From positions 1,135 through 65,134 of the forward strand of contig CAVVHF010000018.1 of assembly GCA_963747905.1 (NCBI GenBank): a stretch of DNA of 64,000 nucleotides. The letters run 5' to 3'. Below are positions 6,608 through 36,316 of this stretch, piece after piece. A program made the translations under genes and the position numbers. Source of the stretch: an uncultured bacterium. Its GTDB lineage: Bacteria; Patescibacteriota; Minisyncoccia; UBA6257; 2-01-FULL-56-20. How positions within the stretch are numbered: position 1 is the first letter of the stretch; every line of letters begins with the position of its first letter. The notes beneath the pieces are model-generated. The model was given only the letters and a program-made list of their open reading frames with translations. It had not been told where the DNA came from and did not search any database.

Positions 6608-7851
6608 TATTTTTTAATAAGATTTAATGCTTCATTCAGGTCCACCACCCGCGAATCTTTTTCCGTGCGCTTTTTGATTTCCACTTTGCCATCGCCAAGC
6701 TTTGGACTGACCACAATCCTCCAGGGAATACCGATCAAATCAGCCTCCGCGAACTTCTCGCCCGCGGACATTTCCCTATCGTCATAGAGTACTTTGATGC
6801 CCGCTTTTTGTAAAGTTTCATAGGCTTTTTCGCCATCCGCGCCACCGAGCGCGAGCAGATGCACCGCGAACGGTGCGACCGACTCCGGCCAGATGATACC
6901 GCGCTCGTCATGATACTTTTCCACGATCACGCCCATAGCACGCGAGATGCCGATGCCGAAACAACCCATGATTGGATACTGCTTTTTGCCCTCCTTGTCG
7001 GTATATGTCACGTCAAAGTCCTTCGCAAACTTAGTCCCGAGGTCAAAGACGTTCCCCACCTCCGACGCACGTGCCTTCGCAAGCGTCCCCTTACTACATC
7101 GCGTGCACTTTTCGTCTTCCTTCTCTTTCGCAATCTCTACGTTCACACAAAAGTCGCATGCATCGCAATATAAGATATCATCCTCGCCCGCGTCGGTAAG
7201 CACCATGAATTCATACGAAATTTTTTGCGTGAACGCGCCGCCAGAGGCTTCGGTCGCTTTTGCCACGAGTCCCATCCGATCGTAAATGCGGAAATACGCT
7301 TTCTTCATCTCTGCGTAAAACCGCTCAAAATCTTCCTGCGTCTCGTGGAAGCTATACATGTCCTTCATCAAAAATTCCACGCCGCGCATGAGGCCGGACT
7401 TCGAGCGCAACTCGTCGCGAAACTTCCAGTTAATCTGATATACCGCCCTTGGAAGGTCTTTATAATTATTGATATAACGCATGACGAGCGGCGTCACTAC
7501 CTCTTCCTCGCTCTGCCCAAGCACGTATTCTTTTTCGGTGCGGCTCTTTATTTTGAACAGCACATCGATCTTATCCCAGCCGCCGGTCGTCGCCCAAATA
7601 CTTTTGGGATGGATCATCGGCATGGAAATTTCCTGGCCGCCGACGGCGTCCATTTCCTCACGGACGATGTTCTCTATATTATCCAACACCCGCAACCCGA
7701 GCGGCAGATAGCTGTACACTCCCGCCATCAATTTTGAAACAAATCCCGCCCGCGTTAGGAGCTGGGCGTTTACCGTCGCCTCGTCCTTTGGAGCATTCCG
7801 CTCGGTCTTCGTGAATAATTGAGATTGGCGCATATAGGCACATTTTAGCAC
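6607..7851 (-). CDS. proS: proline--tRNA ligase (compact form without an editing insertion)
   Basis: Class II aaRS motifs, a Zn-binding CxxC...CxxC region (CDACDFC...CTRCS) and a C-terminal anticodon-binding domain; the start may instead be M7 at 7833; its stop overlaps the mreB start (TAATG). Confidence 0.85.
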   Translation of the reverse strand: MLKCAYMRQSQLFTKTERNAPKDEATVNAQLLTRAGFVSKLMAGVYSYLPLGLRVLDNIENIVREEMDAVGGQEISMPMIHPKSIWATTGGWDKIDVLFKIKSRTEKEYVLGQSEEEVVTPLVMRYINNYKDLPRAVYQINWKFRDELRSKSGLMRGVEFLMKDMYSFHETQEDFERFYAEMKKAYFRIYDRMGLVAKATEASGGAFTQKISYEFMVLTDAGEDDILYCDACDFCVNVEIAKEKEDEKCTRCSKGTLAKARASEVGNVFDLGTKFAKDFDVTYTDKEGKKQYPIMGCFGIGISRAMGVIVEKYHDERGIIWPESVAPFAVHLLALGGADGEKAYETLQKAGIKVLYDDREMSAGEKFAEADLIGIPWRIVVSPKLGDGKVEIKKRTEKDSRVVDLNEALNLIKK

Positions 7852-7866
7852 TCACGGCGCGGAGAA

Positions 7867-8964
7867 TCAAAGGATGATACCGCCGCCAAGCATCTCGCCA
7901 TCCGCATCGTAAAACACCGCCGACTGACCTTCTGCCACGAACTTTTGTGGCGCCGCGAACACCAATTTATAATTTCCGTTTTCGAGCTTTGAAAGCGTTG
8001 CATTGGAAAGTGGCTGGCGATAACGCACGCGAGCGCGGACGGGTAAAACTTCTTCCACCGCCCTCCCGGAAATAAAATTCATCTGCGCCAGCTCAACCTC
8101 GTTCCGGTAGAGCGCCGAGTTTTCGCTGCCCTCCGCAAGCACCACCGTATTTGTCGCCGCATCTTTCGACGAAATATAGAGCGGTTTGCGCTCCGCTCCA
8201 GCGCCGCCGGCCGGACCGGTCTTTGGAAACGCAAAGTCAGCATCGATGTGCCGCTGGCCGATGGTATAGAATTCCGCGCCGGAATGCTCGCCAATCTTCT
8301 CGCCAGCCGTGGTTATCAAAGCACCGCGATGTTCCGGAATGTATTGCTTGAGAAAATCATCGAGCGAGAACTTCCCAAGGAAACAAATCCCCTGCGAATC
8401 TTTCTTTTCCGCCGTCGGCAATCCGGCGCGTCGCGCGATTGCGCGAACTTCCGGCTTTATGATTCCGCCTACCGGGAATAAACAATGAGCGAGTTGCTTC
8501 TGGCCAAGCGTCCACAAAAAATACGATTGATCTTTGTTGGAATCGATAGCCTCGAATAATTTAAAAATCCCCTCCGCGGACTTTTCTATCTTTATATAAT
8601 GCCCCGTCGCCACAAAGTCCGCACCGCTTGCGAGCGCTTTCTCCAAAAAAAACCCAAATTTGATCTCGCGATTGCACATCACATCCGGATTCGGCGTGAT
8701 CCCGGCGCGATAGCCTTCTATCATGTACTGTACGACGCGGTCCTTATACTCCTGCTCGAAATCCCAAACATAGAATGAGATGCCGATATGCTCCGCCACG
8801 CGGCGCGCGTCTTCGGCATCGACTTCAGCACAACCGTCGATGTTATAACACTTCATAAATACGCCCACGACATCATAGCCCTGTTCCTTAAGTAAATGCG
8901 CCGCGACGGAGCTATCCACTCCGCCCGACATCCCGACGAAGACGGTCATTGAGTGCCTTAACAT
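7867..8964 (-). CDS. mnmA: tRNA-specific 2-thiouridylase MnmA
   Basis: PP-loop motif GMSGGVDSSV, with a conserved cysteine and C-terminal domains. Confidence 0.85.
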   Translation of the reverse strand: MLRHSMTVFVGMSGGVDSSVAAHLLKEQGYDVVGVFMKCYNIDGCAEVDAEDARRVAEHIGISFYVWDFEQEYKDRVVQYMIEGYRAGITPNPDVMCNREIKFGFFLEKALASGADFVATGHYIKIEKSAEGIFKLFEAIDSNKDQSYFLWTLGQKQLAHCLFPVGGIIKPEVRAIARRAGLPTAEKKDSQGICFLGKFSLDDFLKQYIPEHRGALITTAGEKIGEHSGAEFYTIGQRHIDADFAFPKTGPAGGAGAERKPLYISSKDAATNTVVLAEGSENSALYRNEVELAQMNFISGRAVEEVLPVRARVRYRQPLSNATLSKLENGNYKLVFAAPQKFVAEGQSAVFYDADGEMLGGGIIL

Positions 8965-9000
8965 TTTCTTAAAATTATTTAAAATGGTCTCGGAGGGTTT

Positions 9001-9249
9001 ATGAAAAATCCATTCGGTCTTCGTGTTTACTCGTTCCTTGAAATCAACGATTTTTTGAGTTTCTTGCCGATGTGCACCATCGGAATAACCTTGGCGAGCT
9101 TACTAATCTATCTCGACCTATTCGCTATGGGTATTCGTTTAGGATTGGCTGGCATCTTCCTCATTGCGATACCTACGGGCAAAGGGATTGCCATCATCGG
9201 CTTCCTTTTTCTCCGCCGCAGCGCCACCAACCCCGCCCCTTCCTTATAA
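9001..9249 (+). CDS. hypothetical small membrane protein
   Basis: 82-aa hydrophobic ORF that ends inside a rho-independent terminator; no recognised motif. Confidence 0.3.
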   Translation: MKNPFGLRVYSFLEINDFLSFLPMCTIGITLASLLIYLDLFAMGIRLGLAGIFLIAIPTGKGIAIIGFLFLRRSATNPAPSL

Positions 9250-13290: not shown

Positions 13291-13370
13291 CAAACAAAAA
13301 ATAGCCCCTCTCTTTTTTGACCGTTATGTCTGCGCACTAGGTCAAAAAAGAGAGGGGCTGTTTTTTGTTT
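13291..13370. terminator. bidirectional rho-independent terminator: perfect 20-bp stem (AGCCCCTCTCTTTTTTGACC) with a 17-nt loop, A-run before and T-run after
   Basis: Read directly from the sequence; serves the transposase on the plus strand and the 13369..14052 gene on the minus strand. Confidence 0.55.
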
Positions 13371-14052: not shown

Positions 14053-14155
14053 AATAATTGATTAAATAACGATTAATATATAAGCTTTTTTTGCTTCTCC
14101 TTCTCTCGACCTTTTAGCTATTACTTTTATTATAGCAAAGTGGGGTGAGCACAAC

Positions 14156-14183
14156 TTGAAATTCCACGCCGTTTCTCTATAAT
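14156..14183 (+). promoter_or_regulatory. sigma70-like promoter (TTGAAA-N16-TATAAT) 13 nt upstream of tRNA-Ala
   Basis: Hexamers read directly from the sequence. Confidence 0.4.
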
Positions 14184-14196
14184 CAGTGAGCAAAGA

Positions 14197-14267
14197 GGGC
14201 CCATAGTAAAGTGGTATTACGCGGCATTCGCATTGCTGAGGCGGGAGTCCGATTCTCCCTGGGTCCA
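14197..14267 (+). tRNA. tRNA-Ala (anticodon CGC), atypical: 7-nt D-loop, 4-nt variable loop, T-loop TCCGATT, no encoded CCA
   Basis: Hand-folded cloverleaf: 7-bp acceptor with G3:U70 (the alanine identity pair), D-stem GTAA/TTAC, anticodon stem CGGCA/TGCTG, loop TTCGCAT, T-stem GGGAG/CTCCC, discriminator A. Confidence 0.5.
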
Positions 14268-14478
14268 CACCATCATTTTTTGCGTTTCGGCGCATTTCAA
14301 CACGGCCCATGGAAAATGGGTTTATGTACCGTCATTGTCCATAATACTGCTGGCATAATGCTTCGCTAGATGGCACCAATTGCTGCTTTAGGCAACATTT
14401 TGAGTGTTACCCGTACTTTGCCGGGATAGTGCCTCCGACCTTTGACTTCCTTTTATAGCAGAGTAGGATTCAAGACAA

Positions 14479-14988
14479 ATGAACGCAATTGCAATAAACG
14501 GGTCACTGACATTACTTGGTTGGCTCAATCTAAATCAGGACCTAGCACAATGGATGACCGTCGTGATTTTGATAATCACTGCTTATCTTGCATATCGGAT
14601 TGGAATAAAACAAAATTCAATAAACGAGTTGATTGAGAAAATTGAGGATTCAGCAGAAGTCTTTGCGTACGCAGCAAAGGGCAATAATCCCAATTTAACT
14701 ATCTGGGTTCTATTGGTAACAAACGTCGGGAAGGTGCAAATGTATATGAAGCGGTATACTGTCGAAACTCTTACCCCGATGGACGTCAACAACGCCCTGA
14801 TTCCTGCTGGACAACAGCAAAACGCATGGTATCAAATAGTATTACCGCCAATGGCTGTTAATACTATTTGTAATATTTCCCTCGAATTAGAAGATCACGT
14901 TGGGAGAATGTGGGAATCAAGCATTGATGCCACATTTTTTGGTAGTGGATGGACGACAAACGTTCATAAAATTGAGCAGGTTATATAA
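14479..14988 (+). CDS. hypothetical protein with one TM segment (first gene of the low-GC islet)
   Basis: 169-aa ORF in an AT-richer region; no motif recognised. Confidence 0.4.
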   Translation: MNAIAINGSLTLLGWLNLNQDLAQWMTVVILIITAYLAYRIGIKQNSINELIEKIEDSAEVFAYAAKGNNPNLTIWVLLVTNVGKVQMYMKRYTVETLTPMDVNNALIPAGQQQNAWYQIVLPPMAVNTICNISLELEDHVGRMWESSIDATFFGSGWTTNVHKIEQVI

Positions 14989-15071
14989 GTTAACTCGTCG
15001 CCGAAGGAGAACAGAATCAAGTTGAGAGTTTTTTCCTCAGCCTCGGAGTCGTTTTCAACGATCTAAAAGGC

Positions 15072-15713
15072 TTGATTCTTTTTGATACGATGCTAACGGA
15101 TGACTATGACCCATTGAAGCTCGGCGAGGTAACCGACCACTCTGGCAATTTTGCTGGCGTCCGGGTACAAATTCAAAAACTAATCGCAAGCACCGTAAAC
15201 GAATTCTTTCGACTACTCGACAGCCAATATGGCATCCTTGCCAATCCCGAATTTAACGAGTTATTGGTTCGTCTGGCAAAATCGGATAAGGAACTTTGGG
15301 AGGAACTTTTTGCTGCGACACATGGGGAACATCCAAGCGCAAATGCACTCTTGAAAACACTTTTGTATATCCGCAACAACGTTGCTTTTCACTATGACCA
15401 ATCAGGGAAGGCTCTGACAAAAGCCTACGTCAGCAAATTCTTCGGCAAAGCAGACGATGCAACCAGAGACTCCGCCTATTACTCAATAGGTAACGACATG
15501 GGAGAAACCAGATTCTATTTTTCTGATGCTGCGGTTGAGGAAGCTCTCTATTTGGGAGCAGAGAAAACTTTCAAGGAAAAAAGCGTTGGAGACCCTTCTT
15601 TCGAGAAATATCAAGCGGAAGTAAGAGAAACTGTCGGGAAGATGAACGGTGCTATTACATCGCTTATGAAAAAATATATACAGTCACGTCGGAGTCGTCG
15701 CTCGTCTGCTTAG
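15072..15713 (+). CDS. hypothetical soluble protein with an R-x5-H motif (RNNVAFH), a possible HEPN-like nuclease (speculative)
   Basis: 213-aa ORF in the low-GC islet; only the short motif supports the HEPN idea. Confidence 0.45.
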   Translation: MILFDTMLTDDYDPLKLGEVTDHSGNFAGVRVQIQKLIASTVNEFFRLLDSQYGILANPEFNELLVRLAKSDKELWEELFAATHGEHPSANALLKTLLYIRNNVAFHYDQSGKALTKAYVSKFFGKADDATRDSAYYSIGNDMGETRFYFSDAAVEEALYLGAEKTFKEKSVGDPSFEKYQAEVRETVGKMNGAITSLMKKYIQSRRSRRSSA

Positions 15714-16339
15714 TCTCCAATCAAACAAAAATCGAGTTGCTCTCTAGGAATACCGATGGAGAGGCCATATTTGATTGCCGGTTGCCACGACGCTTTATCG
15801 TCGTAGTTGAATCGGAATTGTTTGTCCTTAAAAAGTGCCACTACGTCTCGATCTCTCCAGAAGTGGGCATACCATCGGTTGTCCTTTATTTCTTTGGTAA
15901 TCTTCCTAAAATCCCCTTCATCCACCATGACGGTATGGAGATGCCATGGATCGTCGTCATCAGTCACTTCGGTTTTTAGCACCTGGAACGATTTCAGGAT
16001 TTCCGGATGGATGAGACTTTCCTCGACGATATTTCCCTTATACATTTTTTCTTTTGCGAAGAACAGGATGATGATCTCGATAAGTGTTGGGCATCCTAAG
16101 ACAAAGAGTGTAGCTATCGTCCAAGTATATGCGAGTATTAGCTGAACCAAATCCGGAAGATATGTTAGTGTCGCGAGAACGACACCGAGGATGGGAATGA
16201 CGAACACGCCGAGGCAGACCAACAACCATTCCCCTATCATTGTAAGAGATCGATCATTAAGCTTATTTTTTCTAAGCTGGTAGAGAATGTAAACGAACAA
16301 ATAGAGCCCGACAAGCACACTAAGTTGCACCGAGAGCAT
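15710..16339 (-). CDS. hypothetical membrane protein (N-terminal 4 TM segments plus an acidic C-terminal soluble domain)
   Basis: 209-aa ORF, convergent with the previous gene and overlapping it by 4 nt. Confidence 0.45.
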   Translation of the reverse strand: MLSVQLSVLVGLYLFVYILYQLRKNKLNDRSLTMIGEWLLVCLGVFVIPILGVVLATLTYLPDLVQLILAYTWTIATLFVLGCPTLIEIIILFFAKEKMYKGNIVEESLIHPEILKSFQVLKTEVTDDDDPWHLHTVMVDEGDFRKITKEIKDNRWYAHFWRDRDVVALFKDKQFRFNYDDKASWQPAIKYGLSIGIPREQLDFCLIGD

Positions 16340-21806: not shown

Positions 21807-22250
21807 TCAGAGACCGCCGCCGCCAAGGCCTCCCAGGTTATTCACATCATTCAGCGATTGCTGGATATACCCCTGGATCCACAGGGTCGTCAGCCAGACC
21901 GCGACGATGCTCGACGCGACGAGCAGGACGAGCATGATGGCGCCAATCTGCTTGGCGCGCGGATCCGGCGAGCGGAGATATTTGATGCCCTGCCACTTGG
22001 TGATTGCAAGATACGCGATCCACGGGAGGACGATACTGAACGCATAGAGTAACAACTGGTCGCCGACGCCCGTGCCGAGAGGTGCCTCAGTCAGTTTCGC
22101 GCCGCAGTTCGGACAGAAATAATATTCCGGCTTTGTGGGAAAGTGGCAACGCGGGCAAATCTGCGCCCCGGCATATCCGGCTACCGTAGCAGGCACTGAC
22201 GGTTGCTGCGGCGTCTGTTGCGACAGTGTAGGTACTGCGTTCTCATCCAT
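21807..22250 (-). CDS. zinc-ribbon (CPRC...CPNC) membrane protein, hypothetical
   Basis: ICPRCHF...FCPNCGAKL zinc ribbon followed by two TM helices and a Gly-rich tail. Confidence 0.5.
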   Translation of the reverse strand: MDENAVPTLSQQTPQQPSVPATVAGYAGAQICPRCHFPTKPEYYFCPNCGAKLTEAPLGTGVGDQLLLYAFSIVLPWIAYLAITKWQGIKYLRSPDPRAKQIGAIMLVLLVASSIVAVWLTTLWIQGYIQQSLNDVNNLGGLGGGGL

Positions 22251-22270: not shown

Positions 22271-22978
22271 ATGGATTATAATGGCGGTATGGAGTTCAGT
22301 TTCCTTCCCGACGATACCATAAGGGACCTTCAGAAGTTCGTGACGGAGGTCTATGCCGTACCGGATGACCGGATCTATTCGTTATGGGATCTGCTCGTTC
22401 AGGAAGAGCGCTTTGCTATGCGGGCACTCAAGGGCATCCGGCAGAATGACATACAGAAACTGGGACATAATCTTCTCATTTCGTTTTCCTGGCTGATTTC
22501 CATCGCCAACCGGCTACATATCGACGTGGAGGAAGAAACATGGCGTCGGTTTCCGGGACTCTGCTCATATTGCGGCAAACAGCCGTGTGCGTGCCGGACG
22601 ATCAAACCCTCTGCGCGGCTCAAAATAACCGCCGATGAGAGTACCCGACCAAAAACATTGGCTGACACACAATCAATGTTTGAAGCGATCTATCCGGCCA
22701 ACAAGCGAACCCTCGCCGACGCAGGCGTCCACCTGGCGGAAGAGATCGGGGAAGTTAGCGAAGCGATCCATAACTATCTCGGCGAACATCGGGAAGAGCA
22801 GTTCGATGAGGTGAAGCTGGAGCTCGCCGATCTCGTCTCCTGTATATTCGGCGTCGCGAACTCCGCACACATCAATATCGCAAAAGAGCTCAGTGAAATA
22901 TATCGTGATAATTGCCATATCTGCCATAACGCTCCGTGTACCTGCACCTTCTCCGACATCGTGCGGTTGCGGACGTGA
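22271..22978 (+). CDS. two-domain MazG-like nucleotide pyrophosphohydrolase-fold protein; each domain is followed by a CxxC-x3-PCxC cysteine cluster
   Basis: Two EExxE / ELADLV all-alpha NTP-PPase-like halves; cysteine clusters CSYCGKQPCAC and CHICHNAPCTC. Confidence 0.5.
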   Translation: MDYNGGMEFSFLPDDTIRDLQKFVTEVYAVPDDRIYSLWDLLVQEERFAMRALKGIRQNDIQKLGHNLLISFSWLISIANRLHIDVEEETWRRFPGLCSYCGKQPCACRTIKPSARLKITADESTRPKTLADTQSMFEAIYPANKRTLADAGVHLAEEIGEVSEAIHNYLGEHREEQFDEVKLELADLVSCIFGVANSAHINIAKELSEIYRDNCHICHNAPCTCTFSDIVRLRT

Positions 22979-22994
22979 CGGCCAAGATGGTCCC

Positions 22995-23612
22995 TCAGGA
23001 CACCTTCCTCACTTCTGCCACCTTCAAGTGCGGGATCGCGCGATGCATAACCGGCGGTTTGTCTTCAAAGAATGTCTGCAATATCTGCAACGCATCGCCA
23101 TGGGAAACGAGCAGAATATTTTTGCCGGCGTAGCGCTCTCCCAAATCGTGAATGAGGGCGGCAACCCGAGCCGCGATCTCCGTCGTACTTTCCACATTCG
23201 CATCCCTATGGTCGGGATCGAGAACGTCCTTATCCCATACATTTTGATAATGGACGTCGCTTGTCCCCTCCCAATCGCCGAACCAACGCTCGCGTAACCG
23301 ATCGTCAAAAATAATTTCCACGGGCACCCCTAATACCTCCTTCGCAATCTCCGCCGTTCGCCGGCAACGCGAGAACGGAGAGGAAAAGATGATTGTGTCA
23401 TCTTTTAATAAACCCTGCGCCTTTGCCTCCCGCACCGAACGCCGAACCTGCTCCTCCCCATTCTTCGTAAGCGTATGTTCATCTTTTTCCCCTTCCTCTA
23501 AATGGCTTAAAATGACCCCACGGATATTCGGCATGCTTTCGCCGTGACGCAGGAGAAAATAATGATTTTTAAATATGGGCTTGATCGATTCCCGCGCACC
23601 CGCTTGCTTCAT
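22995..23612 (-). CDS. histidine phosphatase family protein (phosphoglycerate-mutase-like)
   Basis: LLRHGES catalytic RHG motif and a C-terminal SHGD region; the start is chosen at MKQAGARES. Confidence 0.7.
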   Translation of the reverse strand: MKQAGARESIKPIFKNHYFLLRHGESMPNIRGVILSHLEEGEKDEHTLTKNGEEQVRRSVREAKAQGLLKDDTIIFSSPFSRCRRTAEIAKEVLGVPVEIIFDDRLRERWFGDWEGTSDVHYQNVWDKDVLDPDHRDANVESTTEIAARVAALIHDLGERYAGKNILLVSHGDALQILQTFFEDKPPVMHRAIPHLKVAEVRKVS

Positions 23613-23614
23613 AT

Positions 23615-24046
23615 TTATATAATTTCCAATTTTTTGAACCAATATTCCCACGCCGGCTCCAACGTCAATCTTTTGATCTCTTCCTTCGAATACCATCCCG
23701 CCGATTTTGTTTCCCGCATACTGCGTGCGAGATCGCCGAAAATAGGGCAATAGAAAAGATACCAGTAGTGCGAGGTCGCTCCCTTACTACACCAATTCCA
23801 GTCAAGCTCTTCTTCTAAAAGCAACTTGGGATCATGCACATCAAAACCAATCTCCTCTTTGACCTCGCGCATGATGGCATGCCGCTCATCTTCACCCTCG
23901 TCAACGTGCCCCGCGACACCGGCGAACCCGAGCGGCGGCACGGCGCGTTCGATCAAAAGATATTTCCCATCCCGCTCAATGAGGGCGCCCACCGAAAAAT
24001 GCATCAGCTTCCCGTCTTTTGTTCTCCCTTCTTTCGGTGGCACCAT
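23615..24046 (-). CDS. NUDIX hydrolase
   Basis: Nudix box GHVDEGEDERHAIMREVKEEIGF. Confidence 0.8.
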   Translation of the reverse strand: MVPPKEGRTKDGKLMHFSVGALIERDGKYLLIERAVPPLGFAGVAGHVDEGEDERHAIMREVKEEIGFDVHDPKLLLEEELDWNWCSKGATSHYWYLFYCPIFGDLARSMRETKSAGWYSKEEIKRLTLEPAWEYWFKKLEII

Positions 24047-24053
24047 AGATCGA

Positions 24054-24500
24054 TCAAAAACGAATTTTGCTTATATCGCCATTTAAGAATATCGGCTGAA
24101 GACCGTAGATCTCTTCTTTAAAACCAAGGTCGTCAGAAATGGGATTCAGGATGTAGATCGGCTTGCCGTAATCGAAACCGATAGCTGCCTCGATGAGTGT
24201 GTTCCCGCCGATGTAACCGGGGACGCCCTTCTTCTCGTAATTGAGCACGAGCACTGCATCCCCGCTTTTTACTTTTCGCAGATGGTTTTTAATAAGCCAT
24301 GTCTTACGGGCATATTGCTTTGGATCGTCGAACCACGTCCTATAGGTACCCACGCGATAGTCACCGCTTTTTTTCATCTTCATCGCCGTGTACGGCAGCT
24401 TCACGGCATAGCCCATCGCAGTGAGCCGTTTCTCAACTTCCAGCGCCTGTTTAAAAAACGCAGCACTCGAGCAGATGGTGATTATCTTTTTCTTTTTCAT
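24054..24500 (-). CDS. nucleoside 2-deoxyribosyltransferase-like (SLOG superfamily) protein, paralogue 1
   Basis: N-terminal KIITICSS and the GGNTLIEAAIGFDYGKPIYILN motif (T..E.G.A...GKP), as in NDT/Rcl-like proteins. Confidence 0.55.
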   Translation of the reverse strand: MKKKKIITICSSAAFFKQALEVEKRLTAMGYAVKLPYTAMKMKKSGDYRVGTYRTWFDDPKQYARKTWLIKNHLRKVKSGDAVLVLNYEKKGVPGYIGGNTLIEAAIGFDYGKPIYILNPISDDLGFKEEIYGLQPIFLNGDISKIRF

Positions 24501-24501
24501 G

Positions 24502-24930
24502 TTATGCGATGGCAGATAAATTTCCTTTCAGACAAATAGGATCCATAGCCTTTATTTCATCAATATAGGGAACCTCGCTAGGAATATCGTTGAGCAGAAA
24601 TATCTTCTTTTTATTCACGTAGGCCATCCCCATTTCCATGAGACAGTTACCGCCAATATAATTTTTGATGCCTTTCTTCTCCAGGTTTACAATAAGAATC
24701 GCGTCGCTTTGGAGAATGTGGTTATAGTGCTGGCGGATATAATCATGCGCCCGCTTGAAATCAGCACTTTCGCCAGGCAACGCACCTTCGATGAACGCCA
24801 TTGTTTTGCCATTCACATGATCTTCATAATCCTGATGGATCCAGCCGTCGTAACCCAGATCGCAGAGCTGATTCTTGTAATCAACCATTTCCCTTACGAA
24901 GCTATTACTACCAAGAACGTAGACCTTCAT
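24502..24930 (-). CDS. nucleoside 2-deoxyribosyltransferase-like (SLOG superfamily) protein, paralogue 2
   Basis: KVYVLGSNSF and GGNCLMEMGMAYVNKKKIFLLN; clear paralogue of the adjacent gene. Confidence 0.55.
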   Translation of the reverse strand: MKVYVLGSNSFVREMVDYKNQLCDLGYDGWIHQDYEDHVNGKTMAFIEGALPGESADFKRAHDYIRQHYNHILQSDAILIVNLEKKGIKNYIGGNCLMEMGMAYVNKKKIFLLNDIPSEVPYIDEIKAMDPICLKGNLSAIA

Positions 24931-24951
24931 AAAAAATATTGTCGCACCAAT

Positions 24952-25027
24952 CCGACAGAAAAACAAACAGCCGTTCCGCTGAATTATTCTTATCACAAGG
25001 CGGAACGGCTGTTTGTTTTTCTGTCGG
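24952..25027. repeat. perfect 28-bp stem hairpin abutting the 3' end of tRNA-Lys; its loop contains GAATTATTCTTATCAC, the same 16-nt loop as the 63273..63318 hairpin
   Basis: CCGACAGAAAAACAAACAGCCGTTCCGC / GCGGAACGGCTGTTTGTTTTTCTGTCGG with a 20-nt loop, read directly. Confidence 0.5.
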
Positions 25028-25101
25028 TGCCCCCACCAGGATTTGAACCTGGGACCATCTCCTTAAAAGGGAGCTGCTCTACCAGACTGAGCTATAGGGG
25101 C
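25028..25101 (-). tRNA. tRNA-Lys (anticodon UUU); CCA not encoded
   Basis: Hand-folded cloverleaf: acceptor GCCCCTA/TGGGGGC, D-arm GCTCAGTCTGGTAGAGC, anticodon loop CTTTTAA, T-arm CCAGGTTCAAATCCTGG. Confidence 0.8.
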
Positions 25102-25112
25102 AATTCCTGCTA

Positions 25113-25141
25113 ATAGTAGTGAAAATTGTCGGATATTTCAA
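25113..25141 (-). promoter_or_regulatory. sigma70-like promoter of tRNA-Lys (TTGAAA-N17-TACTAT)
   Basis: Hexamers read on the minus strand, 14 nt upstream of the tRNA 5' end. Confidence 0.4.
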
Positions 25142-25153
25142 CCGACGGCATTA

Positions 25154-25537
25154 TTATTTGGATTTCGTCCGATATGCTTTTTTAATATCCAGATACGCCG
25201 CGTACGTCCCATGCTCCCCCTTTTGCTTTCTCATAAGATCGGCGGGATATTTTTTCTCGATACGCGCGAGTTTCGCGCGGATGATCTTTTCGGAATCAAG
25301 ATCGAGGAGCACCGCCATCTCGATCGCATAGAGAAACACATCAGCCAATTCTCCTTTCAACTTTTCCATTTTCTCCTTATTTTTCTTTGTATCTTTGATA
25401 TCCAAACTTTGCCATTGGAAAAGCTCCAGCAGTTCGGCGGCCTCGATGGATATGGATTTTGCGATGTCGGACGGACGCAGCACATGCCAATTCCTCGCGC
25501 GCAGGTATGCCTTGATGTCTTTCTCTAGTTTCTTCAT
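25154..25537 (-). CDS. MazG-like nucleotide pyrophosphohydrolase (single-domain, YpjD/dCTPase-like)
   Basis: EAAELLE...ELADVFLY motifs; 127 aa, all-alpha. Confidence 0.7.
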   Translation of the reverse strand: MKKLEKDIKAYLRARNWHVLRPSDIAKSISIEAAELLELFQWQSLDIKDTKKNKEKMEKLKGELADVFLYAIEMAVLLDLDSEKIIRAKLARIEKKYPADLMRKQKGEHGTYAAYLDIKKAYRTKSK

Positions 25538-25546
25538 ATTTGTTTA

Positions 25547-25963
25547 TTATGCCTTCTTTCTAAACACCGTCAACCCGCTACGCTTCGCATATCCGCATTT
25601 TTCGGCGAAGACGAAATTTTTCTTTTCGGTCTCAAAATAGATCGACGTGCCTTTCGCGAGTGTGGCGATCTTTTTCATCATCCGCAACCCTAACCCCTGG
25701 CGTTGATATTCCGGCGCAATGACGAGGTCGAGGATCTTCGTGTCGATGGCAAAGTCGCTGAGCGCTCTGCCAATGCCGATAAGTTCGCCGTCACCGTTCC
25801 GCGCGGAGATGACGATGTCGCAGTTCGCGAGAGAGCGCTTCATCCGTACCGTGGAATATTCTTTCGCGGCACCCCAGCCAAGCTCTATATACAGCGCCGC
25901 CGCTTCGGCGGGTTTTACCGATTTTTTATCGGCAGAGATGACGATATCGAGCGCGATAGACAT
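25547..25963 (-). CDS. GNAT family N-acetyltransferase
   Basis: Acetyl-CoA motif QRQGLGLRMMKKI. Confidence 0.7.
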   Translation of the reverse strand: MSIALDIVISADKKSVKPAEAAALYIELGWGAAKEYSTVRMKRSLANCDIVISARNGDGELIGIGRALSDFAIDTKILDLVIAPEYQRQGLGLRMMKKIATLAKGTSIYFETEKKNFVFAEKCGYAKRSGLTVFRKKA

Positions 25964-27092: not shown

Positions 27093-28082
27093 TTAATATC
27101 CAATAACCTCCCGCGAATGCGGCTCTTCGGATATCTTCATGAACCCCGACGCAAGGAGCAGCTCGTAAAAAACGAGACATATGAATTGCGCAAACCATAC
27201 GAACAGGATGCCGAGCGTGCGCAAGCCGATAAAGAGCACCGTCACCCAGCCGACATCGAACCATCCCGACGACTGGCTCTGCCACGCGTTCAGCACGCCA
27301 TTCAGCACATTATAGAACGCGTCACTCGTGGGCGATGACGTGACGACTGTGCCGGACGCGTCTTCCAAAAAGTTTTGCGTGAACTGGGTGGTCGCCTGCT
27401 GGAGCGCGATATTTTTCTGGGCATCGTTCAGGCTTTGAAAACTCGGATTGTTCGCCAGCTCCATCTTGGAAACGCTTTGCGCGAAATCGCCGAACGAGCC
27501 GTTGAGTGACAGCTCCGGATAGAAGCTGTTCACGAGCCCGGAGGTCCAGTCAAAGAACGTTCGGAAACTTTGTTGGGAAACGATGAGCGCATTGCCGCCG
27601 AGCTGTGGAACATACGCAAGGATCATAAAGAGCAGGACTGCGGTCGTGAACTTTCCCAACACGTCTCCGCTCGCGCCCAAGAACGGGATCTCGATCCCAT
27701 TCCGCACCTGCGTGCGAGCGCTGAAATGCCCCCACACGAGCATGACAATCATAATGACGGCAATAACGCCGATGATCTGCGCATTGTCCCGCCAAAAAAA
27801 TCCGAGCATCGCCACTGTTTCAAAAAAAATAACGAGCATGCTCCGCCATCCGTTCTTGGACAAAAATACCTCCATGACGGATACCACCCCAAAGAACGTG
27901 AGCGCGGCGAATAAGAACCACACCGACCATCCTTGCGTGAGATAGCGATAGTAGCAATAGCCAAACAGCGCGGCGGACAACACCGCCGCCGCATCAAGAC
28001 TAAGCGACCGCCACGTGCCCGACGGGCGCTGGGCCGTGCTGATCTTAGGCCGATTGATCAGGTTTTGGTTCTGCGGGTCCAT
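27093..28082 (-). CDS. hypothetical polytopic membrane protein inserted between dnaK and dnaJ
   Basis: Hydrophobic ORF; the longest frame (to 28208) overlaps the dnaK 3' end, so a start at MDPQNQ (28082) is assumed. Confidence 0.5.
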
Positions 28083-29982
28083 CGGGTTGCTGCCCAACAT
28101 TATCCCCCTGAGGTTCATTGGGTTTATTATACGCCGCTTGCCCGATCTTTTGTATCTCTGTCGAAAGTGCCTCGGTCGCAGCTTTGATCGCCGCTTCATC
28201 TTCGGCATCTTTCACGCTCTTCAGCGCCGCCAGTTTTTCTTCCACGCCGGCCTTCACCTCCGCCGGCAGTTTATCACCCGCATCCTTTATCGATTTCTCG
28301 GCAAGATAGATGAGCGACTCCGCCTGATTGCGCGTCTCAATGAGTGCCTTTCTCTTTTCATCTTCCACCGCATGTTCTGCCGTTTCCTTCTTTAACTTCT
28401 CGATCTCTTCTTTTGAAAGGTTGCTCGACGCTTCCACTTTAACCGACTGCACTTTGCCGCTCGCTTTGTCTTTTGCCGAGACGTTCAAGATGCCGTTCGC
28501 GTCGATGTCGAACGTGACCTCCACCTGCGGGACGCCGCGCGGCGATGGCGGAATTCCGTCGAGAATGAACTTCGCGAGCGTCTTGTTGTCGCCGGACATC
28601 GGACGCTCACCCTGCAAAACATGCACTTCCACCGACGTCTGATTGTCCGCCGCCGTCGAGAAGATCTGCGACTTCGCTGTCGGCACCGTCGTGTTCTTCG
28701 GGATCATCGGCGTCGCCACGCCGCCGTATGTCTCGATGCTCAGCGAGAGCGGCGTCACATCCAAAAGTAAAATATCCTTCACTTCGCCTTCCGTCTTGCG
28801 GCCTTCTGCTTTCGCTGCCAAAATTTCGGCCTGAATGCCCGCGCCGAGCGCGACCACCTCGTCGGGATTGATCCCTTGATGCGGCTCTTTTCCAAATAAC
28901 GCCTTCACCGCTTCCTGCATCGCCGGCATACGCGTCTGCCCACCGACGAGGATCACTTCCGCGATCTCGCTTAGCTGATATCCGGCGCCCTTCGGCGCGG
29001 GCGATGTCACTGTTTCTTTCGTCAGTTGGATCGAACGATCGACGTATTCTTGAACGAGCGACTCGAGCTTCGCACGCGTCAGCTTGATCTGAAAGTGCTT
29101 CGGTCCGTTCGCATCGGACGAGATGTACGGAATGTTGATCTCCGTCTCGAGCGCGGTCGAAAGCTCGTGTTTCGCGCGCTCCGCAGCTTCCTTCAGCCGC
29201 TGGACCGCAAGCGGGTCTTTGGAGATATCGATGCCTTCCTGTTTCTTATATTCCGCGACTAGATATTCCTGGATCTTCTTATCGAAATCGTCGCCGCCAA
29301 GGTGCGTGTCACCGCCCGTCGCGCGAACCTCCACCGTTTGCTCTTTGGATTCGGCGTCGTAGCCCATTTCCAAAACAGACACATCAAATGTTCCGCCTCC
29401 AAAATCATAGACCACGATCTTCTGATTTTTTTCTTTGTTCACTCCATACGCGAACGCAGCGGCGGTCGGCTCGTTCAAGATGCGATCCACTTTCAGCCCT
29501 GCGATCTCGCCGGCGTTCTTTGTCGCTTGTCTTTGCGAATCATCAAAATACGCAGGCACGGTGATGACCGCCTCGGTGATCTTCTCTCCAAGTTTTGCTT
29601 CGGCATCGGCCTTCAGTTTACTCAAGATGAACGCGGAGATCTCCTCCGGCGAATACCACTTATCGCCCATCTTCACTTCCACGCCGCCGGTCGCGCCGGC
29701 GCGGATCTCGTACGGAAGCCACGCTTTGTCGCGTTGGACCTCCGCATCGGTAAACTTACGTCCAATCAGGCGCTTCACGGAAAATATCGTGTTCGTTGGG
29801 TTCGTTACCGACTGCCGCTTGGCGAGCAATCCCACCAGCCGCTCACCGCCTTTCGAGAGCGCAACGATGGAGGGCGTCGTACGATTACCCTCGCTGTTCT
29901 CCAATATCTGCAACTCGCCATTCTTCATGACGGAGACGGCTGAGTTTGTTGTTCCTAAATCGATTCCAATTATTTTTGCCAT
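28045..29982 (-). CDS. dnaK: molecular chaperone DnaK (Hsp70)
   Basis: [10 protein letters not shown] and DLGGGTFD motifs; 645 aa. Confidence 0.95.
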
Positions 29983-34124: not shown

Positions 34125-35489
34125 ATGGCGGTCATCAAAAAATCACAACTGAAACTCCCACCGCAGAACCTGGAAGCAGAACAGGCGGTGTTGGGTTCCG
34201 TCCTCATCGATAAGAACGCGATCTTCCGTGTGGCGGATATTTTATTGCCGGAAGATTTTTACACGCCGACGCACGAACGGATCTACAAAGCCATCCTTAC
34301 GCTCTATGAAAAGCATCAGCCGATTGATGTGCTCAGCCTCACCAATTTCCTCAAAGAGCACGAGCTCTTAAAAGAGGTCGGCGGATCGGCGTATCTTGCG
34401 GACCTTACGAACCATGTGTCGAGCGCATCGCACGTCCAACACTATGCCACGATTGTAAAAGAGAAAAAGGTTTTGCGCGATCTCATCAAGGCGTCGGCGG
34501 AGATCGCCGAAGACGTGTTCTCGAACGGCGGCGAGGTGGAAGACCTACTTGATGACGTCGAGCAGAAGATCCTTTCGATCTCACAGAAATCCATGCCGCA
34601 AAATTTCGTATCGCTCAAGGACGACCTCACGAGCGCATACGAGCGCATCGCCAGCCTCCACGCCGGTGGCGGAAAGTTGCGCGGCGTGCCCACTGGCTTC
34701 CCTGCGCTCGACGAGACGCTTTCCGGACTTCAAAAATCCGAGCTCGTCATTCTCGGTGCGCGTCCGTCGGTCGGCAAGACGTCGCTCGCACTCGACATCG
34801 CGCGGAACGCGGGCAAGGCGGGATTCACCGTCGGACTTTTTTCGCTCGAAATGTCGCGTGAATCATTGCAGGACCGCATCATCGCTGCCGAATCGCAGGT
34901 GCCGCTCTGGAACATTCTCACCGGCCGCATTTCGAACGACAGCGAATTCTCCATGATTCAGAACGCGCTGGATCGACTTTCTACGATCAAACTTTTTATT
35001 GACGACTCTCCGTCACTGAACGTGTTGCAAATGCGCTCTATGGCACGACGGTTGCAGGTGGAACACGGGCTTGATCTGCTCATCGTGGACTACCTCCAGC
35101 TCATCCGCCCGCGCACGAACAGCGATAACATGGTGAATATGATCACCGAGATATCGCGTGGACTCAAGGCGCTTGCGCGCGAGCTCAAGGTACCGGTGCT
35201 CGCGCTCTCCCAGCTCTCGCGCGGCGTGGAACAGCGCGATCACAAGATCCCCCGCCTTTCGGATCTCCGCGAATCCGGCGCGATCGAACAGGACGCGGAC
35301 GTTGTAATGTTCCTCTGGCGCGACGAGCGTAACCCAAACGACACTACGTCGTCCATCGACAATACCGTCCACTTGCGGATCGCCAAGCACCGCAACGGCG
35401 CGCTCAAGGATCTCGACTTCTTCTTCGACGCGGAACGCGCGAGCTTCAAGACGATAGAGAAAAGATACGAGGAACTGCCGGCCCTCTGA
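34125..35489 (+). CDS. dnaB: replicative DNA helicase DnaB
   Basis: N-terminal domain LEAEQAVLGS; Walker A GARPSVGKTS; RecA-fold motifs. Confidence 0.9.
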   Translation: MAVIKKSQLKLPPQNLEAEQAVLGSVLIDKNAIFRVADILLPEDFYTPTHERIYKAILTLYEKHQPIDVLSLTNFLKEHELLKEVGGSAYLADLTNHVSSASHVQHYATIVKEKKVLRDLIKASAEIAEDVFSNGGEVEDLLDDVEQKILSISQKSMPQNFVSLKDDLTSAYERIASLHAGGGKLRGVPTGFPALDETLSGLQKSELVILGARPSVGKTSLALDIARNAGKAGFTVGLFSLEMSRESLQDRIIAAESQVPLWNILTGRISNDSEFSMIQNALDRLSTIKLFIDDSPSLNVLQMRSMARRLQVEHGLDLLIVDYLQLIRPRTNSDNMVNMITEISRGLKALARELKVPVLALSQLSRGVEQRDHKIPRLSDLRESGAIEQDADVVMFLWRDERNPNDTTSSIDNTVHLRIAKHRNGALKDLDFFFDAERASFKTIEKRYEELPAL

Positions 35490-35608
35490 GGTATAGCCTA
35501 CATACTTTTTTCAGGTACGCGTCACCGCCTTCTGGCGAGGCGCTCCATCTCAATCGCCTTCGCGACCTCCGATAGCCCCCAAAGTATGTGGCTATACCTC
35601 AGAGGGCC
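35480..35608. repeat. 28-bp inverted repeat (GGCCCTCTGAGGTATAGCCTACATACTTT) forming a long hairpin with a 70-nt spacer in the convergent dnaB/VanY intergenic region
   Basis: Read directly; the left arm overlaps the dnaB stop codon and the right arm ends 6 nt before the VanY stop. Confidence 0.5.
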
Positions 35609-35614
35609 AACACC

Positions 35615-36316
35615 TTAGCGTTTCCTCTCTTTCTTTTCGAAATGCCAATGCCACGGTTCATACATAACGCCATCTTTGTTTTTTTTGGGATATGACAAAT
35701 AAAAGCCAAATTTGTTTGCATTGCGTATCAACCATTCAAATTCTATTGTCTTTCCAAATTTTAAAAGATCATCATCTTCTGGAATTCCTTCTTCTGTCAT
35801 AAAATCGATTGCTTGTCGTTGGGGGTTACTGTGCTCACTGTAACCCGGGAAAGCAGCCCATCTGACGGTTTTCCTAAAATCAAAGCCCGTATATTCAAAC
35901 AAAGAAAGGAACACTATAATTTGATAAGTTGGCGATCGGTAGCCAGACGCTACGAGTAACGACTTTCCAATATCCTTCTTTATCGCTGAATTCAGATGCC
36001 GATAAGCTTTATACACGGTACCGGGCAATAATTGCTCATTCATAGTTTTAGCTCTTCCTTTATGGAAAAACCTTTGCTTTCTTATCTTAACGATATCAGA
36101 CGGAACGTTTTGTATACCAAAAAATTTTCCTTTAAAACCGTAGCGGCGAGGATCGATCGACAAAAACTTTTTAATGGCCAACCTTTCATCTTTTTCAAGG
36201 AATTTATAAAGTTTGGAAAAGGTGATCAACCGAAGGTCTTTTATTGCATTAGGACGATCTATCTTTTTTAAAATTGTTTTAACGATTTCCGGATCAAGAA
36301 AGCCGCGCTGTTTCAT
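35615..36316 (-). CDS. VanY/M15-family D-alanyl-D-alanine carboxypeptidase-like peptidase (in a low-GC segment)
   Basis: SGYRSPTYQ, SEHSNPQRQAIDF (SxHxxGxAxD-type) and EPWHWH motifs. Confidence 0.7.
   Translation of the reverse strand: MKQRGFLDPEIVKTILKKIDRPNAIKDLRLITFSKLYKFLEKDERLAIKKFLSIDPRRYGFKGKFFGIQNVPSDIVKIRKQRFFHKGRAKTMNEQLLPGTVYKAYRHLNSAIKKDIGKSLLVASGYRSPTYQIIVFLSLFEYTGFDFRKTVRWAAFPGYSEHSNPQRQAIDFMTEEGIPEDDDLLKFGKTIEFEWLIRNANKFGFYLSYPKKNKDGVMYEPWHWHFEKKERKR

Follow-up and report, generated by a model that had tools for sequence, protein, structure and literature searches.

In true nucleoside 2-deoxyribosyltransferases (NDTs), such as that of L. leichmannii, Asp72 is the general acid and Asp92, six residues before the catalytic Glu, binds the 5'-OH, while the Tyr of strand beta1 sets the 2'-deoxy specificity in MilB and Rcl. 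The CMP (hmCMP) N-glycosidases MilB and BlsM function in the biosynthesis of antibiotics, and MilA/ThyA-like genes are linked to theirs. DCTPP1 and DNPH1 act in series. Human DCTPP1 is an all-alpha dCTP pyrophosphatase (PMC7162842) and human DNPH1 an hmdUMP N-hydrolase (PMC10603095), and both are pool sanitisers. DNPH1 employs a Tyr-Asp-Glu catalytic triad (Y24/D80/E104 in the human enzyme) and holds the phosphate by Ser98 and the partner-subunit Ser128' (PMC10603095). In phages, the dATP/dGTP pyrophosphohydrolase DutZ is encoded next to, or as a fusion with, DmtZ, a dAMP N-glycosidase/phosphodeoxyribosyltransferase of the NDT family (PMC12884076).

Here we describe a variable set of nucleotide-hydrolase genes beside a tRNA-Lys gene, lying in a 64-kb window (the whole stretch of DNA analysed) of a Patescibacteria (CPR) genome of the Minisyncoccia/Paceibacteria type. 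Two of these genes encode NDT-A and NDT-B, members of an uncharacterised family that adopts the NDT fold. As in the DmtZ-DutZ system, an NDT-fold enzyme stands beside, or is fused with, a (d)NTP pyrophosphohydrolase. However, DmtZ serves 2-aminoadenine biosynthesis in phage Z-genomes with a trimeric-dUTPase-like partner, whereas the NDT-A/NDT-B family is cellular, is essentially absent from viral collections, has NUDIX, MazG, Maf and ITPase partners, and is unrelated to DmtZ in sequence at the BLAST/HMM level. Sequence similarity to DNPH1/Rcl is likewise not detectable, and, unlike in the DCTPP1-DNPH1 pair, the partners are encoded adjacently or fused. Motifs and spacing differ from those of MilB/BlsM and of LOG-type NMP phosphoribohydrolases, and, in contrast to the NDTs (PF05014; 7o62, 6evs, 1f8x), the fusion and genomic partners yield nucleotides rather than nucleosides.

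The tRNA-Lys locus and its variability

The islet is flanked by an hrcA-grpE-dnaK-dnaJ block on one side and by rnhB-nusB on the other. All the genes listed in the original prediction are present (Table 1), and the cluster is indeed made up of nucleotide-hydrolase genes. NDT-B, NDT-A, NUDIX and HisPhos form a tightly packed operon with intergenic gaps of 1-7 nt, the MazG-like and GNAT genes lie past tRNA-Lys, and the two-domain MazG is on the strand opposite to the operon.

Table 1. Features of the islet, with positions in the window
Feature	Position	Strand	Evidence
Two-domain MazG/dimeric-dUTPase superfamily NTP pyrophosphohydrolase, all-alpha, internally duplicated	22271..22978	+	
Histidine phosphatase branch 1 (HisPhos), 205 aa, final operon gene	22995..23612	-	His_Phos_1, E 3e-30
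NUDIX hydrolase, 143 aa	23615..24046	-	PF00293, E 1e-13
NDT-A, NDT-fold protein, 148 aa	24054..24500	-	Structure comparison; no Pfam match
NDT-B, NDT-A paralogue, 142 aa	24502..24930	-	PF05014, E 0.02
Inverted repeat, perfect, 28 bp, 20-nt loop	24952..25027		RNA fold
tRNA-Lys, anticodon UUU (gene ttt)	25026..25101	-	ARAGORN; Rfam tRNA, 69 bits
MazG-like NTP pyrophosphohydrolase, single-domain, 127 aa	25154..25537	-	PF12643, E 3e-10; PF03819, E 4e-3
GNAT acetyltransferase, 138 aa	25547..25963	-	Acetyltransf_1, E 2e-8

Both MazG proteins show the all-alpha four-helix bundle with an EExxE...ExxD metal-binding motif; in the two-domain protein, EExGE...ExxD occurs in the C-terminal half, the N-terminal half is degenerate, and a Cys4 motif (CxxCx4CxC) closes each half. 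The MazG-like protein also matches a PHROG pyrophosphatase (E 1.5e-8). NCBIfam matches of HisPhos are all below threshold, as are the weak matches of NUDIX to the NudB, NudG and MutT types. The gene call on the source contig gives a HisPhos of 205 aa, with 2 bases between it and the NUDIX stop codon; a 251-aa ORF starting at TTG 23750 was rejected as a longest-ORF artefact. The 28-bp inverted repeat, which abuts the tRNA-Lys 3' end and folds with a predicted -55.4 kcal/mol (z -8.8), looks like a bidirectional intrinsic terminator between tRNA-Lys and the NDT operon, and in an Rfam search no family reached its gathering score there.

The NDT pair and the MazG-like gene had been predicted to be AT-richer than their surroundings, and this difference is real but modest. 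It is largest in NDT-B, whose GC of 0.42 is the minimum of the cluster and the third lowest among 78 ORFs (z -2.4; GC3 z -1.4). NDT-A (GC 0.468) and the MazG-like gene (GC 0.46) deviate by z of about -1.2 to -1.4, but since their GC3 is close to the mean (z -0.3 and -0.4, respectively), their low GC mostly reflects amino-acid composition.

By comparison of synteny, the cluster is not conserved universally, and its composition is not uniform. In close relatives, NDT-B, MazG-like, NUDIX, HisPhos and two-domain MazG are exchanged, truncated or absent. The tRNA-Lys gene is conserved in the related loci L006 and L007, but its flanks are replaced or lost in both; in L006 a DUF7768 gene fills the slot of the missing MazG-like gene, and the GNAT beside DnaJ is retained at 83% identity. 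Nucleotide identity to L006 is 0.61-0.79 over NDT-B and about 0.90 from the B/A junction onwards, and this junction is a sharp recombination breakpoint. The suspicion that the cluster is accessory rather than core thus holds for the arrangement, as relatives differ in members and the B/A junction is a breakpoint; the individual gene families are widespread across Patescibacteria.

An NDT-fold family with apparently altered catalytic residues

NDT-A and NDT-B are paralogues, as the original prediction had proposed (27% identity; BLASTP E 5e-20; hhalign probability 99.9%), and NDT-B forms an orthologue group of its own. The family is found mainly in Patescibacteria (1,011 clusters at 50% identity, E<=1e-10), and most genomes with a member have NDT-A only. 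For both paralogues the NDT nature is hardly visible to sequence profiles: a Pfam search with NDT-A returned no match, NDT-B reaches 15.4 bits against the PF05014 gathering cut-off of 28.8, which neither paralogue passes, and hmmsearch of the PDB gave no match for the family. It is plain by structure comparison, which reveals a flavodoxin-like three-layer alpha/beta fold with a parallel sheet in proteins of about 140-160 aa. TIR structures match less well than NDT structures, and so do LOG-type and DprA structures; in structure and sequence the family does not lie closest to LOG/DprA/YpsA-type domains, as a member of SLOG (SMF/DprA-LOG) would.

Thirteen residues are invariant in both paralogue groups (S12, F15, H73, D81, N87, K90, Y96, G98, G99, L102, E104, K113 and E130). 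They include parts of the family loop N-x-E-K-x-G...Y-I-G-G-N, of which Y96-I-G98-G99-N is an invariant stretch in NDT-A. The Glu (E104 in NDT-A, E99 in NDT-B) is invariant in 60 sequences and is followed by K113; it lies at the N-terminal end of the helix that comes after beta3, ahead of a helix of small residues and a G/K-K-P strand, and is the putative nucleophile. Given the fold and this conserved Glu, the earlier suggestion that these proteins may exchange or cleave nucleobases is sound. The beta1 Tyr is retained in NDT-B (Y4, invariant), together with H68 and E99, and is replaced by Thr, Val or Ala in NDT-A.

Catalytic positions were compared by aligning NDT-A (A1) and NDT-B (A2) each with Rcl (2khz) and the L. 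leichmannii NDT (1f8x), both of verified identity. Three of these four alignments put E104 on Rcl E93/NDT E98 and H73 on Rcl D69/NDT D72, the His position being gapped when A2 is paired with 1f8x; both A2 pairings place NDT-B Y4 on Rcl Y13/NDT Y7. Alignment of the NDT-A and NDT-B profiles to Rcl and NDT by hhalign was not significant (probability <= 1.3%), and, with no PDB match either, the equivalence of H73 to the Asp and of G98 to Asp92/Ser87 rests on motif register and secondary-structure order. Tentatively, His would thus occupy the place of the usual catalytic Asp, and Gly-Gly that of the 5'-OH-binding Asp of true transferases, so that the L. leichmannii pair D72 and D92 would correspond to His and Gly here. 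With respect to the DNPH1/Rcl triad, the Glu is shared, the invariant His seems to take the place of the Asp (D80 in human, D69 in rat), and the Tyr is found in NDT-B only. To our knowledge, no characterised member has His in place of the general-acid Asp; DmtZ, in which the triad Asp is likewise substituted, carries Asn (Asn77).

The residue six before the Glu is Gly (G98), and Gly-Gly-Asn lies at the Ser98 position of DNPH1, although the loop leading to the Glu exceeds that of Rcl and NDT by 4-6 residues and this position could be mis-assigned. The NMP hydrolases have small uncharged residues here, namely S98 in DNPH1 (PMC10603095), S97/G99 in MilB (PMC4081090) and V98/G99 in DmtZ (PMC12884076), and like DmtZ the family has uncharged residues in the 5'-phosphate pocket. 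Unlike DNPH1/Rcl, the family has its own loop motif, and no recognisable counterpart of the phosphate-binding Ser98 or Ser128' was found.

Fusions, gene neighbours and a possible pathway

Of the 1,680 representatives of the family, the best 150 were surveyed for domain fusions. Among these 150, the NDT-like domain is fused to an NTPase_I-T ITP/XTPase in seven proteins, to NUDIX in five (in both orders), to MazG in three (including P0362, NDT-NDT-MazG), and to Maf and GNAT (P0374) in one each, while P0361 joins two NDT-like domains. In the fusions, neither MazG nor GNAT is orthologous to its counterpart in the cluster (E 0.05 and 0.02, respectively; the P0374 GNAT, at E 0.019, is not close to that of the cluster), and GNAT is an uncertain member of the functional unit.

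In a survey of 104 cases from 80 species, with 104 genes from the same loci as controls, NDT-A has a NUDIX gene beside it more often than any other kind of gene. Directly adjacent and on the same strand, NUDIX occurs in 20/104 cases against <=2/104 in the controls (Fisher p <= 2.6e-5), and this adjacency is strongly non-random. NDT-B is adjacent in about 17 neighbourhoods, and other neighbours are UDG (5), Maf (3), HIT, CYTH, MazG-like, cytidylate-kinase-like and HisPhos genes. The MazG-like gene occurs near NDT-A on the same strand as the next gene in L030 and with one ORF between in L050.

Domain fusions and gene neighbourhoods carry the most weight for function. The fusions with pyrophosphatases that produce NMPs point to nucleoside monophosphates, rather than nucleosides, as the likely substrates, and the best reading is that NDT-A and NDT-B follow NTP pyrophosphatases in a pathway, either as (d)NMP N-glycosidases or as phospho(deoxy)ribosyl-transferases, in the manner of human DCTPP1-DNPH1 and phage DutZ-DmtZ. 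We favour the former, with a probability of roughly 0.55 for irreversible nucleotide disposal by a probable heterodimer. The neighbouring NUDIX, MazG-like and two-domain MazG enzymes would convert (d)NTP to (d)NMP and PPi, and NDT-A and NDT-B, as retaining N-glycosidases using the invariant Glu as nucleophile, would cleave the (deoxy)nucleoside 5'-monophosphates to free base and (deoxy)ribose 5-phosphate. Non-canonical or surplus nucleotides would thereby be destroyed, with base and sugar phosphate returned to salvage, and the sugar phosphate or an NMP may be the substrate of HisPhos. The pair would probably have two non-equivalent composite active sites, and, as NDT-B alone keeps the beta1 Tyr, B may take deoxy and A ribo substrates. 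We infer the substrate class, the order of reactions, the heterodimer and the ribo/deoxy split; the heterodimer would not be obligatory, since most genomes have NDT-A alone. It is rather unlikely that the two are natural phospho(deoxy)ribosyl-transferases (NMP + base' <-> NMP' + base, direct base exchange as recently demonstrated for phage DmtZ) forming a ribo(A)/deoxyribo(B) heterodimer with His as the general acid. If such base swapping were true, genome-reduced Patescibacteria would gain a PRPP-independent interconversion of scavenged nucleotides.

A link to phage, anti-defence or defence had also been raised, and a nucleotide-based conflict system, in which NDT/TIR-like depletion or cleavage of NAD+, signalling nucleotides or dNTP-derived pools is combined with NUDIX/MazG partners, is highly improbable. 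In PADLOC-DB 2.0 neither NDT-A, NDT-B, the two MazG proteins, HisPhos nor GNAT has a match, the sole one being a generic match of NUDIX to the candidate model PDC-S07 (E 6e-9). A tblastn search of 50,697 phages gave no homologue, and 2.9 million IMG/VR contigs gave a single match, in host DNA flanking an inovirus-like prophage. The window lacks an att-type copy of the tRNA-Lys 3' end, the cluster genes that were scanned encode neither a transposase nor any other mobile-element domain, and the domains joined to NDT belong to house-cleaning enzymes rather than to sensors or effectors; the better match to NDT than to TIR structures also speaks against such a system. Alternatively, small housekeeping hydrolases may have piled up at a recombination-prone tRNA locus without a shared pathway, the NDT-like proteins acting on unrelated substrates, for example in modified-base/queuosine-type nucleotide salvage or cofactor metabolism. 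We consider this quite unlikely, although it would agree with the differing gene content of close relatives, with the many NDT-A genes that are solitary amid unrelated genes, and with the occurrence, as the next gene, of TGT (3 loci) and of glyoxalase-type genes (4-6). Without functional coupling it would be hard to account for independent fusions to four NTP-pyrophosphatase superfamilies and for a NUDIX adjacency enriched 10-fold or more relative to same-locus controls.

It is also possible, if unlikely, that the proteins are true nucleoside 2-deoxyribosyltransferases for salvage, with (d)NTP converted by NUDIX/MazG to (d)NMP and then, by HisPhos or an HD nucleotidase, to a nucleoside whose deoxyribosyl group NDT-A/NDT-B would move between free bases. 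This corresponds to the exchange option of the original prediction, taken at the level of nucleosides. The presence of HisPhos in the operon, and of an HD/YfbR-like (5'-nucleotidase-like) gene closely upstream on the opposite strand in L003, fits this nucleoside route equally well. Against it, the fusion partners (ITP/XTPase, NUDIX, MazG and Maf) release NMPs, and none among the best 150 of 1,680 representatives is a phosphatase or nucleotidase; Gly-Gly appears in place of the 5'-OH-binding Asp, and the invariant Lys (K90) and a Gly-rich loop fit a phosphate. Moreover, NDT-A is kept in L006, where HisPhos is reduced to its C-terminal 64 codons, and in L007, where HisPhos is absent.

Nucleotide hydrolases around tRNA-Lys

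The ORF listing, ARAGORN and the profile scans recovered every element that the original prediction had placed around tRNA-Lys, and the cluster gene calls match those on an identical public contig. The run NDT-B, NDT-A, NUDIX and histidine phosphatase (HisPhos) has gaps of 1–7 nt and is obviously one operon. The cluster is flanked on one side by dnaJ-dnaK-grpE-hrcA and on the other by the genes for a membrane protein with a zinc ribbon, for RNase HII and for NusB. Patescibacteria of the Minisyncoccia/Paceibacteria type are the source of its homologues and related loci.

Features of the cluster and other observations in the window
Feature	Position	Strand	Basis or remark
Long hairpin	13292-13370		31-nt arms, 97% complementary, 17-nt loop; between convergent genes
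Low-GC block	14062-16339		beside tRNA-Ala(cgc)
tRNA-Ala(cgc)	14197-14268		
Low-GC ORFs	14479-14988, 15072-15713, 15710-16339		within the low-GC block
Zinc-ribbon and transmembrane protein	21807-22250	-	conserved, 147 aa; upstream of rnhB
Two-domain MazG-type protein	22271-22978	+	235 aa; ORF listing, profile scans
HisPhos, branch-1	22995-23612	-	205 aa; profile scans
NUDIX hydrolase	23615-24046	-	profile scans
NDT-A	24054-24500	-	148 aa; ORF listing
NDT-B	24502-24930	-	142 aa; ORF listing
tRNA-Lys hairpin	24952-25027		perfect 28-bp inverted repeat, 20-nt loop; begins at the last base of tRNA-Lys
tRNA-Lys(UUU)	25026-25101	-	ARAGORN
MazG-like protein, PF12643	25154-25537	-	profile scans
GNAT	25547-25963	-	profile scans
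Conserved membrane protein	27093-28208	-	335-371 aa; between dnaK and dnaJ; without Pfam match
Imperfect 41-nt inverted repeat	35458-35498 / 35590-35630		at 3' end of VanY-type gene, one arm overlapping its last codons
VanY-type D-Ala-D-Ala carboxypeptidase	35615-36316	-	GC 0.375, GC3 0.37, z about -3

The Pfam match of the two-domain MazG-type protein is confined to its C-terminal half. The two halves align with each other (hhalign probability 96.7%, E = 4e-10), the C-terminal half carries an EExGE...ExxD motif that is invariant in an alignment of 26 family members (~60% identity across Patescibacteria), and a Cys4 motif, CxxCx4CxC, closes each half, which together show the protein to be internally duplicated. 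It is therefore read as an all-alpha NTP pyrophosphatase in which one half is catalytic and the other degenerate.

The tRNA-Lys hairpin folds as RNA at -55.4 kcal/mol (z -8.8 against shuffles) and, with its GC core between A-rich and U-rich flanks, looks like a bidirectional intrinsic terminator; an Rfam scan gave no match at gathering score, and scans for promoter and terminator consensus sequences did not rise above shuffled expectation. The other long hairpin in the window is of similar style, and such A/T-flanked hairpins may be the usual terminators of this genome.

The NDT-like pair and its active site

NDT-A and NDT-B are paralogues (27% identity, E = 5e-20; profile-profile probability 99.9%) and represent an uncharacterised, mainly patescibacterial family with a variant active site. 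Neither gave a usable match to Pfam or NCBIfam models, and an hmmsearch with both family profiles over the whole set of PDB sequences (E ≤ 10) brought up spurious matches only. The newly defined family is sizeable, comprising 1,680 clusters (50% identity) at E ≤ 1e-3 and 1,011 at E ≤ 1e-10 in a HMMER search of 1.84 billion representatives, and is covered by no Pfam or NCBIfam model; we know of no studied member. Two genes that lie close to the homologue from Falkowbacteria (locus L004) code for membrane proteins and were ruled out as further paralogues.

Thirteen residues are invariant in both paralogue groups (S12, F15, H73, D81, N87, K90, Y96, G98, G99, L102, E104, K113 and E130, in NDT-A numbering). 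The sequences of the templates Rcl (2khz) and L. leichmannii NDT (1f8x) were checked against PDB before hhalign to the family profiles; global mode gave nonsense and local mode a sensible topology at probabilities of at most 1.3%, so that these alignments serve as motif guides only. In the local alignments, which are not statistically significant, the family and the templates have the same order of strands, helices and motifs. At this motif level, E104 is matched with the nucleophile Glu (Rcl E93, NDT E98) in three of the four combinations of profile and template, and H73 with the Asp that acts as general acid (Rcl D69, NDT D72), also in three of four, with a gap where the NDT-B-group profile meets 1f8x. 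Y4 of NDT-B takes the position of the catalytic-triad Tyr in both pairings of its group profile, where NDT-A has Thr, Val or Ala.

In true NDTs, an Asp six residues before the Glu binds the 5'-OH. In a register inferred from motifs, the NDT-like family has at this distance an invariant Gly-Gly-Asn, with an invariant Lys ahead. Small uncharged residues occupy the position of the 5'-OH-binding Asp in DNPH1 (S98; PMC10603095), MilB (S97/G99; PMC4081090) and DmtZ (V98/G99; PMC12884076). Judged from its residues, the Gly-Gly-Asn and Lys pattern would suit a 5'-phosphate.

Association with NTP pyrophosphatases and a predicted two-step route

Pfam scanning of multi-domain proteins among the best 150 family matches revealed fusions of the NDT domain to NTPase_I-T (ITP/XTPase; seven proteins), NUDIX (five, in both orders), MazG (three, including P0362, which is NDT-NDT-MazG), and Maf, GNAT and DUF7768 (one each), as well as to a second NDT-like domain (P0361). 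Except for GNAT, DUF7768 and the duplicated NDT-like domain, these partners are house-cleaning NTP pyrophosphatases, whose product is a nucleoside monophosphate. Gene neighbourhoods in 80 species genomes were also surveyed, where NUDIX accounts for 20 of the 104 immediate same-strand neighbours of NDT-A, compared with no family above 2/104 among control genes lying four or five positions off in the same loci (Fisher p ≤ 2.6e-5 for the NUDIX excess). NDT-B adjoins NDT-A in ~17 loci; other recurrent neighbours of NDT-A are UDG (5), Maf (3), TGT (3) and cytidylate-kinase-like genes (2), and MazG-like, HIT, CYTH and HisPhos genes also occur.

The best-supported reading, to which we give a probability of roughly 0.55, is a predicted route in which NUDIX and MazG-type enzymes would convert (d)NTPs to (d)NMPs, and NDT-fold enzymes would then cut the N-glycosidic bond via a covalent Glu intermediate. 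Water as acceptor would give hydrolysis to base and sugar 5-phosphate, while a second base would give phospho-ribosyl or phospho-deoxyribosyl transfer. The proteins fused to ITPase, Maf or NUDIX would be expected to pass ITP/XTP or modified NTPs on to the free base. The sanitation or salvage function originally proposed for the cluster is supported and narrowed to putative NMP-level N-glycosidases coupled with NTP pyrophosphatases. In NDT and DNPH1 dimers both subunits contribute to every active site, and since A/B pairs are recurrently adjacent or fused, an NDT-A/NDT-B heterodimer can reasonably be inferred. DCTPP1 and DNPH1 work in series. Precedents for the proposed logic are available in these two human nucleotide-pool sanitisers (PMC7162842 and PMC10603095, respectively) and in Z-genome phages, where DutZ and DmtZ are fused or adjacent (PMC12884076). 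In MilB, the substitution F17Y, as cited in PMC4081090, switches specificity from CMP to dCMP. By analogy, the Tyr-bearing NDT-B may prefer deoxy and the Tyr-less NDT-A ribo substrates.

Patescibacteria have tiny genomes, and their nucleotide economy is poorly understood. The NDT-like family now gains a concrete role to test: it would remove or exchange the base of monophosphates that house-cleaning NTP pyrophosphatases release. Should this prove right, the "pyrophosphatase then N-glycosidase" design of DCTPP1-DNPH1 and DutZ-DmtZ would reach a major bacterial radiation, and the NDT superfamily, members of which are used as biocatalysts for nucleoside and nucleotide analogues, would gain an active-site variant with His for Asp and a Gly-rich phosphate loop. 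Metabolic reconstructions of CPR genomes, in which these genes are currently labelled "hypothetical", would also improve.

Three homologous loci in other genomes add to the picture of the neighbourhood. In L003, an HD/YfbR-like gene lies close upstream on the opposite strand. The NDT-B/NDT-A pair is followed in L010 (8459-9677, -) by inorganic pyrophosphatase and UppS, whereas the genes after it in L008 (9029-9475, +) are NUDIX, a HIT-family hydrolase and a 406-aa ORF that bears a HisPhos domain, all of these being additional nucleotide- or PPi-handling neighbours.

Variability and origin of the cluster

NDT-B has the third-lowest GC among 78 ORFs (z -2.4; GC3 z -1.4). The AT excess of NDT-A and the MazG-like gene lies chiefly in the first and second codon positions; with GC3 close to the mean, composition is a weak sign of foreign origin for these two genes, and comparison of relatives is more telling on the question of core or accessory. 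In the closest species-level relative (L006), NDT-A is 96% and NDT-B merely 61% identical to that of the window, and nucleotide identity steps from 0.61-0.79 to ~0.90 exactly at the B/A junction. A DUF7768 gene (6302-6775; E 4e-22), NDT/DUF4406-like by the look of its sequence, takes the slot of the MazG-like gene there, and a 610-bp segment inserted at the position of the tRNA-Lys hairpin carries a weak CYTH-domain gene (6934-7503; E 0.004) on the opposite strand, between tRNA-Lys and NDT-B. HisPhos is cut to its C-terminal 64 codons (8886-9077) by a deletion of ~420 bp relative to the window gene; the remnant is probably a pseudogene, which suggests that the NDT/NUDIX unit can do without the phosphatase. 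In L007 (NDT-A 91% identical), NDT-A comes immediately after tRNA-Lys, with the zinc-ribbon gene next, and the syntenic stretch is without NDT-B, NUDIX, HisPhos and the two-domain MazG. In L009 and L010, NDT-B is 84-87% identical to that of the window and NDT-A just 77%. These differences mark an islet at tRNA-Lys that is prone to recombination and exchanges different nucleotide hydrolases, and the DUF7768 and CYTH-like genes of L006 show that nucleotide and triphosphate hydrolases of several kinds are swapped. The accessory character first suggested for the cluster thus holds for its arrangement.

The variation has the look of flux by homologous recombination or replacement. The cluster is not termed an integrative element, since searches found neither a second, att-like copy of the 3' end of tRNA-Lys nor island-bounding repeats; the scanned cluster genes also have no mobile-element domains. 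Viral origin is rejected: tblastn of NDT-A and NDT-B against GenBank phages gave no match, and the single IMG/VR locus with a family member (L086, IMGVR_UViG_3300025162_000499, 752-1168) holds it next to a gene for an ABC transporter, in host DNA that flanks an inovirus-like prophage (Zot, Rep G2P, tyrosine integrase). Nor is the hint of a defence or anti-defence role supported: these searches gave no phage homologues, and PADLOC gives a generic NUDIX match only, with nothing specific for the NDT-like proteins in PADLOC or PHROGs scans. A literature search on YtoQ function brought no useful information.

Elsewhere in the window, the VanY-type gene has the lowest GC of all and is a better candidate than the NDT genes for recent acquisition. 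The ORFs beside tRNA-Ala(cgc) have a GC of 0.40-0.45 and no Pfam matches, and this low-GC block may be a second variable islet.
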